DNA of 58,636 nucleotides from an uncultured virus (IMG/VR IMGVR_UViG_2061766007_000575) (Duplodnaviria; Heunggongvirae; Uroviricota; Caudoviricetes): IMG/VR virus record IMGVR_UViG_2061766007_000575. The stretch is one strand, 5' to 3'. Of the stretch, positions 4,499 to 13,130 are shown piece after piece. The first letter of the stretch is position 1. The number at the start of each line of letters is the position of its first letter. The notes beneath the pieces are model-generated. The model saw only the letters and a list, made by a program, of their open reading frames with translations. It ran no database searches and was not told the DNA's origin. Both the position numbers and the translations under genes were made by a program.

Positions 4499-5538
4499 AT
4501 GGAATTTATAAGTGATTTACAAAAAGAAATAATTGAAGCTAAAGATAAAAATATTTGTGTTTTTAGTGTCGCAGCTAGCGGCAAGACAACGGTTTTAACG
4601 GAACGAGTTAAATATTTATTGAAAAATGGTGTTGATCCGGAATCAATTGTCGTCTTTACTTTTACTAATGCGGCCGCAGAAGAAATGAAAAAGAGAATTG
4701 GAGCAGTCGGCGCCAAGTGCTTTATTAATACCGTTCATGCTTACGCTTATTATCTTTTGACTAAAAATGGAATTGATACAAGTACAGCTATAAATGAGGA
4801 AGATTTTGATGAATTCTTTCATTTAATTCAATTACATCCAGAAGTTATTGAACCAGTTGAGCATCTATTATTAGATGAAGCGCAGGATTCAAACTTACTT
4901 CAATTTCAATTCATTCTAAAAATGATAAAACCGGCGCATTGCTTCATAGTTGGAGACGCTCGTCAATCAATCTACGGATTCAATGGCGGCCGACCAGATA
5001 TTTTAGTCGCTATTGCAAATGATTCTAATTTTACTGTTTATGAGTTAAATAAGAATTATCGTAATGGCCCGCGCATTTTAAATTTTGCTAAAAAGATTAT
5101 AAAAGGAAATAGAATCGAAGATACTGATATTGAGCTTTATGATACTTCTGTTTGTATGAAGATGGGTGAATTAGATTTAGTGACTGAAGTTGAGTATTTG
5201 CCTAGTCGAGTTATAAAAGCGATTCAAGATGATCCGCAATATGGTAATTGGTTTGTTTTAACTAGATCTAATGACCAGCTTGATAATGTAATGAGATATT
5301 TAACTAAGGCTGAAATTCCTTGCGATACTTTTAAAAGAAGTCAGCTTAGTTCAACTGAGTTTCAAGAGAAGATGGCGGCGAATACAGTAAAAGTTTTAAC
5401 AGTTCATTCTGCTAAAGGGCTTGAAGCTGACAATGTAATTGTAATTGGTGTTGCAAAATTTAGCATTAATCCAGAAGAAAGACGAGTAGCTTATGTTGCG
5501 GCGACTCGTGCGCGCAAGAAATTAATTTGGATGAGGAC
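4499..5538 (+). CDS. UvrD/Rep-like SF1 helicase (C-terminus seen in variant copy 6850..7189)
   Basis: AASGKTT, TFTNAAA.EM, LLDEAQD, VGDARQSIYGF, NYRN, TVHSAKGLE, YVAATRAR. Confidence 0.92.
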
Positions 5539-5639
5539 NNNNNNNNNNNNNNNNNNNNNNNNNNNNNNNNNNNNNNNNNNNNNNNNNNNNNNNNNNNNNN
5601 NNNNNNNNNNNNNNNNNNNNNNNNAAAAAGGAGAAAAAG

Positions 5640-5843
5640 ATGAGAAATATAGCAAGAATTCCTCATGTTTGTAATAAAATTGCCGATCTTTGGATTAATA
5701 ATTGTCCAGATTGGCGTTTTATGCAGTTTATAAGTAATTTTATGCGTTGGCTTGGTAGTGACGGTTTCTATCTTGAAGATGATAAACTTATTGAAATGAT
5801 GGAACTTTTTATAAAGGAGTTGAATGAAGATGGGTCTCGATAA
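5640..5843 (+). CDS. Hypothetical protein (67 aa)
   Basis: GGAG RBS; MRNIARIP...PDWRFMQ. Confidence 0.7.
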   Translation: MRNIARIPHVCNKIADLWINNCPDWRFMQFISNFMRWLGSDGFYLEDDKLIEMMELFIKELNEDGSR

Positions 5844-5926: not shown

Positions 5927-6676
5927 ATGGGAAAATTCATAGATATGACTGGTTGGCATATGTGGGAGCATGGTCAACCAAAGAGTCATATAACTGTATT
6001 AAAAAGAGATACCGAGTTTGATAAAAAACGAAACGGCCGCCCCATCCGTTGGATTTGTAAATGTGAATTGTGCGGTACAATTAAATCAATTGAAGGTGCA
6101 GAACTACGTCGCACTAAAAAACCTACTTTATCATGTGGATGTGAAGCAGAAAAGAAACATAAAGAATTTGGAAAAGTTACTTTTAGAGATTTGACGAATC
6201 AACGATTTGGAAATCTAATTATTATATGTAAAGTTGGAACTAATAAATATGGGTATGCTCTTTGGAAATGTCAATGTGATTGTGGTAATTCTTGTATTGT
6301 ATCAAGTAGAGAATTATTAAATAAAGAAACTACATCTTGTGGATGTTTAAAAAATTCTACTCGTGAATTTTATATAAATAAATGGTTAAATGAGCATAAT
6401 ATAAAGTATATACCAGAATATTCATATTATGACCTTAAAGATAAATTACCTTTAAGATTTGATTTTGCTATTCAAAAAAATGGGCAGATTATTGCCTTAA
6501 TTGAACATCAAGGAAGACAACATTATGAAGGTAACTGGTGTACAGAAACATTACAATTGCATGATAACATGAAAAAGGAATATTGTTTAAATCATAATAT
6601 CCCTTTATATGAAATTAAATATAATGAAAACTATTTAGTACGGTTAGAACAGATTTTTCAAGAGATTGGTTATTAA
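5927..6676 (+). CDS. Free-standing homing-type endonuclease (two Cys-rich Zn repeats + DUF559-like nuclease)
   Basis: WICKCELCG..SCGC and WKCQCDCGN..TSCGC repeats; LRFDFAI..LIEHQGRQHY; absent from the variant haplotype at 7190-7260. Confidence 0.75.
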   Translation: MGKFIDMTGWHMWEHGQPKSHITVLKRDTEFDKKRNGRPIRWICKCELCGTIKSIEGAELRRTKKPTLSCGCEAEKKHKEFGKVTFRDLTNQRFGNLIIICKVGTNKYGYALWKCQCDCGNSCIVSSRELLNKETTSCGCLKNSTREFYINKWLNEHNIKYIPEYSYYDLKDKLPLRFDFAIQKNGQIIALIEHQGRQHYEGNWCTETLQLHDNMKKEYCLNHNIPLYEIKYNENYLVRLEQIFQEIGY

Positions 6677-6849: not shown

Positions 6850-7189
6850 CCCGCAATATGGTAATTGGTTCGTTTTAACCAGATCTAATGACCAGCTTGA
6901 TAATGTAATGAGATATTTAACTAAAGCTGAAATTCCTTGCGATACTTTTAAAAGAAGTCAGCTTAGTTCAACTGAGTTCCAAGAGAAGATGGCGGCGAAT
7001 ACAGTAAAAGTTTTAACTGTCCATTCTGCTAAAGGGCTTGAAGCTGATAATGTAATTGTAATTGGTGTTGCAAAATTTAGTATTAATCCAGAAGAAAGAC
7101 GAGTTGCTTATGTTGCGGCGACTCGTGCGCGCAAGAAATTAATTTGGATGAGGACACAAAAGAAGAAAAAGTTTGAGCGTTGGGAGTAA
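6850..7189 (+). CDS. Variant copy of UvrD helicase 3' end with true stop
   Basis: Near-identical to 5233-5538; ends KKKFERWE*. Confidence 0.85.
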
Positions 7190-8607: not shown

Positions 8608-9344
8608 CAGGCAGAGGCATTAAAATTTTATATTTAGTCTTCCAAAAGATTACTTATAATTAGAAGTCAAAAAGGAGGTTCTAATTATGAGTAATAAAGC
8701 AAAGTGGAGAAATTTTTCTAAAGAAGAATTACAACAATTCGTATTAGATTCTATTTCTTTTAGAGAATTGGCTGGAAAATTAGGTTATGTTAAAGATGGA
8801 GGGGGAACTATTACTTCTTTACATAAAATGTGTGAAGAATATGGTTTTGATACTTCTCATTTTAAAGGGCAATCTTGGAATAAAGAAAACTATGACTATT
8901 CTTTATTTACAAAAGATTCAATAAAAAAGAATGGTATAACCACTTTAAAGCCTTTAATCAAATTAAGAGGTAGAAAATGTGAATGTTGTGGTTTGGAAGA
9001 ATGGTTAAATCAACCAATTAATTTAGAAATACACCATATTAATGGTGACCGAACGGATAATTCTTTAGAAAATTTACAATTACTTTGTCCTAATTGTCAT
9101 TCTTATACTGATAATTGGAGAGGAAGAAAAGGTGCTAATGCTACGGAGCACTAGGATAGGAAACTTCCTATGTGAATGCTGGCTAATTCGGTGAAAGCCT
9201 TACTGAGGTAACGCCGAGCTAAATTCAATAAATGTTGATAAATGTGTAGAGACTATATACCAGCCACCTAAACAGAAATGCATGGTGAAGACATAGTCCA
9301 GACTACAACGGAGTAATCCGGCTATGGTGACATAGAGTAGTAAG
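8608..9344 (+). mobile_element. Group I intron (IC3/trnL-like) carrying an HNH ORF
   Basis: 5' exon ends in U, intron ends in G; P AATTCGGTGAAA, Q AACGCCGAGC, R GTGTAGAGACTA, S AAGACATAGTCC; IGS GGAG at ~9145 pairs with CUU|C. Confidence 0.92.
8687..9154 (+). CDS. Intron-encoded HNH homing endonuclease
   Basis: CECCG...LEIHHINGDRTDNSLENLQLLCPNCHS; AAGGAGG RBS. Confidence 0.92.
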   Translation: MSNKAKWRNFSKEELQQFVLDSISFRELAGKLGYVKDGGGTITSLHKMCEEYGFDTSHFKGQSWNKENYDYSLFTKDSIKKNGITTLKPLIKLRGRKCECCGLEEWLNQPINLEIHHINGDRTDNSLENLQLLCPNCHSYTDNWRGRKGANATEH

Positions 9345-10580: not shown

Positions 10581-10665
10581 GGGGAATTAGAGAAGTGGCA
10601 TCTGAATGGTCTGATCAACCATCTGCTTTATAGCGGCGCAGGTTCGATTCCTGCATTCCCCACCA
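10581..10665 (+). tRNA. Atypical class II tRNA with GAU anticodon (identity uncertain)
   Basis: GGGGAAT/ATTCCCC acceptor, ATGGT-CTGATCA-ACCAT, variable stem CTGCT-TTAT-AGCGG, GGTTCGATTCC, A-CCA. Confidence 0.85.
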
Positions 10666-11059: not shown

Positions 11060-12005
11060 GAAAGTTGAGAGAGGCTTTGGAAATTAGCCCATGTAAGTAG
11101 TTGCTTCTTATCGTAATAACCTCTTCTATTCAATAGGCTCGTTCCGCCAACCGAACGGAACCTTGATTAGTGACGACAAGGATGAGTTGCGCAGTAGAGG
11201 GCCTTGCGACGAGTGACTAAATAATGTTTTTGGGACGCCTTTAACGAATAAGTCACACGGGAAACCGCTCAGTAAACCTATTGAAACTTTCTTTTATATA
11301 GGGGCCTTTGCCCCGTGGCGCCAGTATGGACAGCCTTCACGCGGCGGTGCTGATTTCGCTAATTTTAGTCCATTAGTCAGTTTATTATATATCTCGGTGA
11401 AGAGCAAAAGCCATTGTGCCGAGAGCCTAACCGCTCGAAGAGAGTGGTCTAGAATGGGAATGTTAGAGGATACCCTAACAAACCCTAGATGGCTCTTATT
11501 GTGAGATAAGAGTTGCCTGCGCCTAAAGGTGTGGCTAGAGGTTAGGTGTGCTGACAAAATCGCAACCAAAGATACTGTCTCATCGCATCCGCAATAGAAG
11601 TTGAGCGTTAAAAGCGTGAACTGAAGCCAAGTTAGAGTCCAGTGTGGCAACTGGGGTAGACCTTGGTAAAGCCAATAAGGATGTTTGTAGTGATGTCATG
11701 GTAACATGACTATAAGATGAGGTCAAGGTACGAGTAGCCTAATACAGGGACATATGGTAAAAAGAATATTTTTGAAGATTATTATTTTACTTCTTGTCTG
11801 AATGGTGGGTGAAAGTTAGAGGTAGACAATCCTCTCAAGCAAAGATATGAAGAATATCTAAGAGCGTAGAGTGCGCTTGAAGGCAAGAAGTTATAAGGTC
11901 GCTCCTTATGGCTCAGACTTGTTTTCGCTTGTGGTTGAATATGGTTGAAGGTTTAACAGTTGGTAGGGCGAAGGTCCATATAATAGTTACTGATTTATAG
12001 GTGAG
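11060..12005 (+). ncRNA. Large structured ncRNA, ROOL/GOLLD-like (boundaries approximate)
   Basis: ~950 bp without a credible ORF between a promoter (11024-11052) and a hairpin/tRNA; many helices and long-range pairs (11325-31/11974-80; 11790-99/11881-90); lies in a phage tRNA cluster. Confidence 0.65.
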
Positions 12006-12048: not shown

Positions 12049-12122
12049 AGAGGATGTGGTGTAATAGCAGCACACAACATTTGGGATGTTGAGGCGCCGT
12101 GCAAATCGGACATCTTCTACCA
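12049..12122 (+). tRNA. tRNA-Pro(UGG), atypical (8-bp acceptor, short T-stem)
   Basis: CAACA-TTTGGGA-TGTTG; AGAGGATG/CATCTTCT; T-loop TGCAAAT; A-CCA. Confidence 0.8.
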
Positions 12123-12489
12123 AAATTAAATAGGGTCGCCGCTGGCATCTCAATTATCCGAGAAAAATGTACATTGACTCTATTTAAGATAACTCTCTAG
12201 GAGGTAGATGCCTATGAAAATGGTAAAAACTTCCCTTAGCGAGAGAAATCCAAATATTTGGGTTTGACGTTCGCTTAGCGTCGGTAAATAAATAAGGTTA
12301 TTGTGGTTCTTTGGATGACTTTCTACCATACTAAAAAAAAGAAAAACGCAGCGTTAACACGGATTTTTTAATCTTTTTAAACTACCACCGGCACTCAACC
12401 TCGGTGTCCTTGAGATATGCGGGTCAGTGATATGTGGCTTGGCGGCAAACGCTATAAAAGAAGGCGAAGTAAAAAAGATTTTCATATAT

Positions 12490-12563
12490 GGCGGGTTGGT
12501 GTAAAGGTAGCATAGCAGACTCATTATCTGCTGATTTGGGTTCGACTCCCAAGCCCGTAACCA
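12490..12563 (+). tRNA. tRNA(CAU), Met/Ile2, atypical (G1:A72 mismatch, U37)
   Basis: GCAGA-CTCATTA-TCTGC, GGTTCGACTCC, A-CCA. Confidence 0.85.
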
Positions 12564-12700: not shown

Positions 12701-12994
12701 GTGTCTGAAAAGAAAATTGAAGAAATATTAGATTTTATACATCGTCGTTTTCCTTCGGATTGTAACTGGACAAATGGAAATTGCTTTTGGTTTGCTTCTA
12801 TTTTAAGAGCGCGATTTCCAAATCTTTCCATTTATTATCTTCCCATAACAGGTCATTTTATAGCCGGCGCGCTGAATACGTATTTCGACTGGACAGGACA
12901 GATCGTTCCAGAAGAAACTCCGCTTCTTTTAGACGAAATCTGTAAAAATGATGATGGATGGGGTTGGCGCCTTCTGCGTGATTGCGTCCTTTAA
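12701..12994 (+). CDS. Hypothetical protein (possible papain/transglutaminase-like Cys-His-Asp)
   Basis: GNCFWFA...GHF...YFDWTG. Confidence 0.65.
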   Translation: MSEKKIEEILDFIHRRFPSDCNWTNGNCFWFASILRARFPNLSIYYLPITGHFIAGALNTYFDWTGQIVPEETPLLLDEICKNDDGWGWRLLRDCVL

Positions 12995-12997
12995 TAT

Positions 12998-13078
12998 GGG
13001 GCATTGATGGGTATCGACTGCGGTTAAAGCCGACGAGCACTCCGTAGGACACGAGTTCAACTCTCGTATGCTCCACCA
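12998..13078 (+). ncRNA. Minimal tmRNA-like RNA (tRNA-like domain only)
   Basis: 5' GGGGCATTGATGGGTATCGAC and 3' GGACACGAGTTCAACTCTCGTATGCTCCACCA match tmRNA ends; G3-U70, A73; no D-stem, no anticodon arm. Confidence 0.85.
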
Positions 13079-13130
13079 AGAGAACAATAGGATGTTCTCT
13101 AATTTTTGTTTTCAAAAGGAGGAAAACATA

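Follow-up and report, generated by a model that had tools for sequence, protein, structure and literature searches.

A tmRNA gene reduced to the tRNA-like domain in a cattle-gut phage, and its short-form relatives in viral contigs

The window analysed here is the whole 58,636-nucleotide (nt) stretch of an uncultured Caudoviricetes virus recorded in IMG/VR as IMGVR_UViG_2061766007_000575. It carries an 81-nt gene for a transfer-messenger RNA (tmRNA) consisting of the tRNA-like domain (TLD) alone, referred to below as a mini-tmRNA or short form (Table 1). The gene stands at the end of a cluster of tRNA genes and a ROOL RNA, and downstream of it lie, in order, an unknown open reading frame (ORF), a cell-wall hydrolase gene (460 nt from the RNA), a ClpP-family protease gene and PhoH. 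Trans-translation is the main ribosome rescue and quality-control pathway of bacteria as well as a drug target, and how phages handle it has hardly been studied. The one phage for which a TLD-only tmRNA is on record is DS6A, and there the form was mentioned only in passing.

The Rfam tmRNA model RF00023 matches exactly positions 12998-13078, at 52.7 bits against a gathering score of 47 (E 6.1e-18, whole window). The alignment spans model positions 1-374 but occupies both ends only, 14 nt standing for 308 internal positions, and the conserved TLD positions of the model are matched base for base. Resume codon, tag reading frame and stop codon are all missing, the two strands of helix P2 being separated by an 18-nt loop alone, and with 308 model positions deleted too little sequence is left to form any of the pseudoknots PK1-PK4. 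The gene order is standard and not permuted, with the TLD halves linked by 28 nt. No model of a two-piece or permuted tmRNA (RF04321, RF01849-51; tmRNA_permuted) reached its gathering score anywhere in the 58.6-kb window, and the Rfam models found no full tmRNA or separate tag-coding piece there, the window being probably about half of the phage genome. ARAGORN makes no call at 12998-13078. Identity as a tRNA (RF00005) was rejected: there is no D stem, the place of the anticodon is taken by a 6-bp helix with an 18-nt loop, and the tmRNA model wins the Rfam clan.

The sequence-only reading of this DNA had described an acceptor with G3-U70, an A73-CCA end, an unpaired D-loop ending in TCGAC, a CTGCGG/CCGTAG helix, an 18-nt loop and a T arm, and each of these lies where it was described. 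It had also taken the element for the tRNA-like domain of tmRNA lacking the mRNA/tag domain, with no pseudoknots, tag ORF or adjacent second piece, and had expected tmRNA covariance models to match at the ends only. The two-ended RF00023 alignment, its deleted interior and the lack of any permuted model at gathering score in the window bear this out. Sequence comparison confirms the element as a tmRNA tRNA-like domain that lacks the mRNA/tag domain and carries the determinants of alanyl-tRNA synthetase (AlaRS). From structural work, the GGAC junction is presumably the SmpB side of the TLD.

Table 1. Coordinates of the mini-tmRNA gene, its parts and selected flanking features in the window
Feature	Position	Strand	Basis or remark
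YunG-like ORF	12701..12994	+	Pfam PF24591, 4.5e-10; stop codon 3 nt before G1
Mini-tmRNA (TLD-only tmRNA) gene, 81 nt with encoded CCA	12998..13078	+	Rfam RF00023 match and conservation in sister contig L144
Acceptor stem, 5' strand GGGGCAT; G1, G2 and G3 are AlaRS identity positions	12998..13004	+	7/7 pairs with 13068-13074, including G3-U70
D-loop TGATGGGTATCGAC, unpaired, no D stem, tmRNA-typical UCGAC at its end	13005..13018	+	Aligns with Rfam consensus GGaUUCGAC
Helix P2, C-UGCGG/CCGUA-G; strands 13018-13023 and 13042-13047	13018..13047	+	Sequence, folds
18-nt loop closing P2, TTAAAGCCGACGAGCACT	13024..13041	+	Sequence, folds
GGAC junction, partner of GAC 13016-13018	13047..13050	+	Conserved GGAC in Rfam consensus
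T arm ACGAG-UUCAACU-CUCGU	13051..13067	+	5/5 pairs
Acceptor 3' strand AUGCUCC (13068-13074), discriminator A73 (13075), CCA (13076-13078)	13068..13078	+	Sequence
Intrinsic terminator, AGAGAAC-loop-GTTCTCT and T-run (hairpin 13079-13100)	13079..13112	+	Terminator scan; directly after CCA
ClpP-family protease, 206 aa	14191..14811	+	PF00574, 1.2e-18; best PHROG phrog_94 head maturation protease; 1.1 kb downstream of the RNA

Relatives were sought in viral contigs with three pattern scans. Scan 1 required GGGG…TCGAC, 15-45 nt, GGAC, a T-loop and CTCCA (at least 120 matches), scan 2 was built from the window RNA's own loop motif, and scan 3 required GGTTTCGAC, GGAC and the T-loop only, the acceptor not being imposed (at least 120 matches). 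Pair counts were anchored on the fixed motifs; a MAFFT alignment staggered the 5' G-runs and was not used for counting. Among the matches listed, scan 1 and the window gave 121 elements, of which 120 have seven of seven acceptor pairs and represent 97 distinct sequences. Across these 97 sequences from the listed matches the T stem is 100% canonical, with three to five pair types at four of its five positions, and for acceptor pairs 5-7 the canonical share is 99.7%. In P2 the first five pairs are canonical in 94% of cases, against a mean of 44% and a maximum of 50.5% in shuffles.

Scan 3 gave, among the matches listed, 95 distinct sequences, 89 of them with a full T stem and acceptor. G1-C72, G2-C71, G3-U70 and A73 are present in all 89 of these listed relatives, while pairs 4-7 each vary among three to five pair types. 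Of the 89, 23 encode CCA. Nine of the 51 matches of scan 2 are real, and G3-U70 and A73 occur in each of these nine, including those with a base other than G at position 4; the other 42 were rejected as chance matches. The sequence-only reading had proposed a search for the same short form in other phage genomes, and the three scans together supply at least 155 distinct validated short forms in at least 291 viral loci. These comparisons show that selection acts on the structure of the short form and on its alanine identity set, which argues that charging matters. The window RNA and its relatives thus make the short form a recurrent, selected phage gene in which the alanine identity set is invariant.

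At gathering score Rfam recovers the short form in 15 of the 18 viral loci tested and misses three, and ARAGORN called none of 60 elements tested as a short form. Two ARAGORN 'tmRNA' calls, at 2593-3079 of L012 (487 nt) and 3000-3395 of L065 (396 nt), are probably artefacts and were set aside; they combine the short form's 3' end with 5' ends lying far upstream, and their 'tags', of 24-25 aa, are atypical. Calls of this type would mislabel short-form loci in automatic annotation, and the family gives annotators reason not to reject short-form matches as truncated tmRNAs. BLAST of the window's 81 nt against 50,697 phage records returned nothing, as did that of the L039 element. The L026 element matched 32 records, over 31-35 nt of T arm and acceptor only, and the three that were inspected are full-length or permuted tmRNAs. 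Short-query BLAST is unsuited to this family.

The insert that replaces the mRNA domain has a recurrent layout of its own. In 104 of 144 distinct inserts of relatives, P2 is predicted to lead into an A-rich internal loop and then a small hairpin, with AAAG, AAA or UUAAA on the 5' side of the internal loop and A, AA, AG or ACU on its 3' side. The window insert is predicted to fit as CUGCGG / UUAAA / GC-CGACGA-GC / ACU / CCGUAG. Elements that lie in tRNA arrays (L040, L063 and L068) share the UUAAA 5' side and have related 3' sides, ACU, CACU and GAAU; in L040 a ROOL RNA is immediately beside the mini-tmRNA. The loop motif UAAAnCC was also considered as a homologue of the stretch that follows PK1 in the Rfam consensus (…CGUAAAuAaaccgcc…), and this was rejected, the motif being too short and A-rich.

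A sister phage contig, L144 (IMG/VR), has DNA 83-92% identical to the window and the same gene order: YunG-like ORF, mini-tmRNA, unknown ORF, hydrolase, ClpP-like gene and PhoH. The two RNAs are identical at 77 of 81 nt. Two of the four differences are in the T-loop, and the other two form the T-stem pair 13054:13064, which changes from A-U to G-C and is therefore compensatory. In the terminator stem two pairs change from A-T to G-C and the hairpin is kept. The flanking proteins are only 75-77% identical between the contigs, so the RNA, with 4 of 81 nt changed, has been conserved better than the genes around it, and it evolves through compensatory changes. Since L144 carries the same gene with compensatory changes, assembly collapse at the mini-tmRNA site is excluded.

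The short form is also present in a phage genome of 99 kb that is complete (direct terminal repeats, CheckV 100%). No full or permuted tmRNA above the cut-off and no SmpB was found in that genome or in four partial phage records, and a Pfam scan of the 83 window ORFs found no SmpB, peptidyl-tRNA hydrolase, RF-1/ArfB domain, AlaRS or integrase. With no phage SmpB in the short-form carriers examined, any SmpB partner would therefore have to be that of the host. At 17 more distant loci with relatives of the downstream hydrolase, ARAGORN found no tRNA or tmRNA gene and there was no Rfam hit at gathering score; no ancestral full form was therefore found at the same spot.

Short forms are also found in bacterial genome assemblies. 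A pattern scan of 185,579 species genomes gave 72 matching loci, 71 of them parsable. Most of the 72 were discarded as 3' ends of ordinary tmRNAs that fit the pattern by chance, and 15 of the 71 are clean short forms (acceptor 7/7, T stem 5/5, at least four of five P2 pairs), from cyanobacteria, actinobacteria, Bacillota, Saccharibacteria and others. The element on contigs of a Christensenella metagenome-assembled genome (Bacillota) is identical to that of the viral locus L068. Each of five bacterial genomes with a short form also has a normal tmRNA of 367-397 nt, and in all five the acceptor, D-loop and T arm of the resident tmRNA differ from those of the short form. The short forms are therefore accessory, being neither replacements nor recent deletions of the host gene nor attP copies of its 3' end. 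A Pseudonocardia and a Leptolyngbya assembly (G009 and G010; loci L386, L389, L387 and L390) contain two different mini-tmRNA genes each, together with a normal tmRNA.

The published precedent is found in the tmRNA Website and in a passage of Hudson et al. 2014 (PMC4131195), which lists 'Mycobacterium phage DS6A (TLD only)'. According to passages of PMC4131195 and PMC11915505 that cite Mao et al. 2009, in E. coli a TLD molecule resembling that of DS6A is a strong inhibitor of tmRNA whether or not it is chargeable, perhaps by titrating SmpB. A section of the 2025 tmRNA database paper mentions the DS6A form, plastid genes of about 65 bp without a coding sequence (CDS) in Mallomonadaceae, and truncated forms rejected in curation (PMC11915505). 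Among the papers searched we found no account of widespread phage TLD-only tmRNAs. The TLD-only gene is not annotated in the GenBank record of DS6A and Rfam at gathering score finds nothing in that phage; an acceptor/T-arm scan placed the gene at JN698994 28478-28560.

DS6A and the window RNA are alike in length (about 80 nt), in the 7-bp acceptor with G3-U70, in A73, in the unpaired D-loop ending in TCGAC, and in having a short P2 and a T arm; both lack a tag frame and pseudoknots and have the standard gene order. P2 of DS6A is capped by an A-rich stretch and a small hairpin (…GAAAACC-GCAC-GCGG…), the layout of the window RNA and most relatives. However, the two sequences are unrelated at the level of BLAST, DS6A has GCAC where the window RNA has GGAC, and DS6A falls below the Rfam gathering score whereas the window RNA exceeds it. 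CCA is encoded by the window RNA and not by the DS6A gene. The record of DS6A, a temperate actinophage, contains no annotated tRNA gene, and the DS6A short form lies between gp33 and a DNA polymerase III gene, unlike that of the window, which closes the tRNA/ROOL RNA cluster of a cattle-gut phage. A TLD-only phage tmRNA has thus already been published and the form is common in viral contigs; the window RNA is a further, well-supported member of a barely studied kind. At the level of the family, the facts to hand are the conserved A-rich loop with its hairpin, frequent placement in the head module and the invariant alanine set.

Other tmRNA forms share the TLD in different settings. Full-length tmRNA (RF00023; for example gp92 of Mycobacterium phage Bongo, 403 nt) has the resume codon, tag frame, stop and PK1-PK4 that the window RNA lacks. 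The two-piece permuted tmRNAs of Pseudomonas phage SM1 and Xanthomonas phage Rb1 (RF04321) have the same TLD elements in reversed gene order together with a coding piece, in contrast to the standard order here. The CDS-less tmRNAs of jakobid mitochondria and Mallomonadaceae plastids are, like the phage form, natural tmRNAs cut down to the TLD, and are thought, according to a passage of PMC11915505, still to act with SmpB on incomplete mRNAs. These organellar forms are the sole tmRNA and have a dedicated imported SmpB, whereas the phage short form is an accessory beside a normal host tmRNA, so that competition is possible. Engineered TLD fragments (T. thermophilus TLD with a UUCG loop, PDB 2CZJ) follow the same design: a short hairpin links the 5' part of tmRNA to its 3' part. 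These fragments bind SmpB and support mRNA-free polyalanine synthesis, as stated in a passage of PMC3929946 citing Shimizu and Ueda 2006. They are laboratory constructs, whereas the natural phage family has a longer P2 with the conserved A-rich internal loop and hairpin.

Gene neighbours were surveyed at related loci with 3-kb flanks and in the window. The recurrent ones are an S78 prohead protease (16 loci), the portal (15) and an exonuclease (8), and in 12 loci the large terminase gene ends about 85 nt upstream of the short form. Genes for tRNAs lie within 3 kb in 10 of 60 related loci, with arrays of six or more in seven, and at 48 of the 60 neither a tRNA nor a tmRNA gene is called over that distance. 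A ClpP-family protein is directly downstream in six loci including the window; in the five others it is a head-maturation protease of about 350 aa (phrog_133, 1.4e-76), followed by the major head protein. In many small phage contigs (for example L072, L019 and L020) the genes for large terminase and portal flank the mini-tmRNA, and that for the prohead protease follows about 1.1 kb downstream, a preferred position within the late head operon.

The sequence-only reading had seen in the ClpP-like gene a possible sign of a module combining ribosome rescue and proteolysis. This proposal looks weak, given that the other ClpP neighbours are head-maturation proteases and that the 206-aa window protein lies far below all curated NCBIfam cut-offs. 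Its serine and histidine align with the active-site motifs of solved ClpPs, and it scores both for ClpP and for ClpP-related head-maturation protease, leaving its assignment to either ambiguous from sequence. A tag-less RNA has no obvious use for a tag-directed protease. With head genes as the common neighbours, the pairing with a ClpP-like gene is therefore a matter of position in or close to the head (late) module and not of a rescue-proteolysis module.

A functional role can be proposed from the biochemistry of the domain. The sequence-only reading had suggested sequestration of SmpB, a block of trans-translation or release without tagging, and the literature puts forward these possibilities for the DS6A form as well. 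Passages of PMC3929946 state that AlaRS, EF-Tu and SmpB all bind the TLD, and that in both the A and the P site the TLD and SmpB jointly imitate a complete tRNA. The reading we favour, and hold to be reasonably probable, is that the window RNA is a functional phage gene product which, charged with alanine and accompanied by host SmpB, would enter stalled ribosomes, take over the chain, bypass tagging and compete with host tmRNA. It would be transcribed at the end of the phage tRNA/ROOL RNA cluster, with transcription stopping at the terminator after CCA, and RNase P would cut its 5' end. Host AlaRS would charge it with alanine by way of G3-U70, A73, G1-C72 and G2-C71, host SmpB would bind at the D-loop/GAC-GGAC side, and EF-Tu would deliver the charged RNA to ribosomes stalled with an empty A site, where the nascent chain would be transferred to it. 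The chain would receive no ssrA degron because the mini-tmRNA has no resume codon or tag frame, and RNase R would not be recruited through it, the recruiting tmRNA elements being absent. Host tmRNA would face competition and rescue would become tag-free, possibly with the addition of one alanine or a few. Later release of the chain would come about through drop-off and peptidyl-tRNA hydrolase, through ArfB or in another round of rescue. It is the invariance of the alanine identity set that argues for charging, and hence for delivery by EF-Tu and action on the ribosome.

Several points weigh against this proposal. Charging, SmpB binding, ribosome entry and benefit to the phage are all deduced from sequence only, and untagged truncated proteins offer the phage no clear benefit. 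By analogy with the engineered TLD that inhibits tmRNA even when unchargeable, as a passage of PMC4131195 has it, a simple sponge would also work. The motifs TCGAC, GGAC and TTCNANT were imposed by the patterns of scans 1 and 3, so that their conservation is not independent evidence, and DS6A has GCAC in place of GGAC. The thermodynamic fold is ordinary (minimum free energy -23.6 kcal/mol, z -0.67), with 42 of 200 shuffles folding as well or better; it is therefore the covariance model and the comparative data that carry the case for identity, and not folding energy. In the window loop the inner hairpin is only 2 bp long. Finally, with the window probably about half of the genome, a tag-coding piece may lie elsewhere in it. 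A bolder version of the proposal is possible but doubtful: a distinct and widespread class of alanine-charged phage RNAs would, with host SmpB, add one or more untemplated, mRNA-free alanines to stalled chains. This phage-run rescue pathway, tag-less or 'alanine-tailing', would outcompete host tmRNA, keep ClpXP and RNase R away from phage proteins and non-stop mRNAs, and free ribosomes late in infection, the A-rich loop and hairpin serving as a ribosome or SmpB contact and not just as a closure.

Other roles were weighed against the same data. Were the RNA purely a sponge, titrating host SmpB and perhaps AlaRS or EF-Tu off the ribosome, trans-translation would be shut down and charging would be irrelevant. 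The lack of a phage SmpB among the 83 window ORFs and in five related records suits such a role, yet a sponge would not need the AlaRS set, which is kept in all 89 relatives listed from the scan that left the acceptor free, while neighbouring pairs vary; we think it unlikely. The strict keeping of the full alanine set is unexplained if the RNA is a decoy or shield against host nucleases or defences that act on tRNA or tmRNA or use tmRNA-SmpB-RNase R. Phage tRNA arrays often counter tRNA-targeting defences, and the RNA is in or beside large arrays in the window and in seven of 60 related loci. That RNase R engagement depends on tmRNA elements, according to a passage of PMC4176180, also counts for a decoy. 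Nevertheless, the 48 loci without a nearby tRNA or tmRNA call and the absence of any consistently adjacent defence or anti-defence gene make it quite improbable. A tRNA-like fold might instead be kept as 'punctuation' for RNase P/RNase Z processing of a polycistronic transcript, its likeness to tmRNA being incidental, as the upstream ORF that stops 3 nt before G1 and the 12 loci just after the large terminase and just before the portal might suggest. Any tRNA-like fold would do for this purpose, yet tmRNA-specific features and the alanine set are kept across very diverse phages, and in the window a terminator follows, leaving no downstream message to separate. We regard such a signal as very improbable.

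That the element is a non-functional remnant, whether a decaying full phage tmRNA, an attP relic of ssrA integration or an assembly collapse, is hardly credible and is already contradicted by the comparative data. Full tmRNAs are known in phages (Bongo; SM1 and Rb1), and many prophages integrate into ssrA, as passages of PMC10865867 and PMC9004378 relate. However, both TLD halves are present and paired, the RNA has changed less than its flanks, with compensatory substitutions (L144), and at least 155 distinct sequences with covariation come from many independent assemblies. The short forms also differ from the 3' ends of resident host tmRNAs in five of five genomes, and none of the 83 window ORFs is an integrase. 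No more plausible than a remnant is a non-decoding carrier that would donate alanine to a non-ribosomal reaction, such as cell-wall cross-bridge formation or lipid or protein aminoacylation. In its favour, some bacteria have special non-decoding tRNAs devoted to cell-wall synthesis, the family never departs from the alanine identity set, and the gene 460 nt downstream is for a cell-wall hydrolase. Against this, no aminoacyl-transferase of the Fem/MurM, MprF or L/F-transferase families was found among the 83 window ORFs or the recurrent neighbours of related loci, and the tmRNA-type D-loop/GGAC features point to SmpB. The family raises the question of what phages do with host tagging: whether they block it, bypass it, or put alanine addition in its place.

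The window itself belongs to a phage with no close relative among the 50,697 isolate phage records, where only tRNA-sized matches were found; its DNA is present in cattle-gut metagenome runs of several studies. The window is probably only about half of the phage genome, the 32.9-kb sister contig being rated 27% complete. The YunG-like ORF may well be co-transcribed with the mini-tmRNA. A weak match to the cow-rumen-4 RNA motif (13079-13128; 27.1 bits against a gathering score of 48.5) extends over the terminator hairpin and also takes in the ribosome-binding site of the ORF that follows.

Upstream, ARAGORN calls nine tRNAs between 9983 and 12563, and an Rfam-based list has ten tRNA hits before the mini-tmRNA. 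The tRNA at 12050-12118 is called by Rfam (43.5 bits) and absent from the ARAGORN calls, and ARAGORN's second tRNA-Ile(gat), at 10581-10665, has 85 nt, an uncommon length for the isotype. A full-length ROOL RNA lies within the cluster at 11369-11998 (315 bits). Expression data consist of assembled contigs from four cattle-gut RNA libraries, which may contain DNA. No contig from two size-fractionated RNA runs or from run X16 lies over the mini-tmRNA gene, and one 166-nt contig of a relative, from run X15, spans 12959-13121 (10 differing letters, depth 5.3). The ROOL RNA is covered by a 695-nt contig of a size-fractionated RNA library at depth 82. Between the tRNA at 12050-12118 and tRNA-Met (12490-12563), positions 12147-12451 have contigs in all four RNA libraries, with a summed depth of up to about 170 in one run. 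This stretch has no ORF of 60 aa or more (the longest, on the minus strand, has 56 aa), no Rfam match and a fold z of -1.38, and may be an undescribed phage RNA or merely part of the RNA-gene transcript.

Further upstream, a group I intron at 9126-9321 (58.1 bits) overlaps the 3' end of an HNH endonuclease ORF (8687-9154). A UvrD-like helicase is apparently split into two ORFs (4499-5674 and 6908-7189), with a homing-endonuclease gene (5927-6676) between the N- and C-terminal parts. The UvrD C-terminal motif set occurs twice, closing the first ORF and again in the second, short one.

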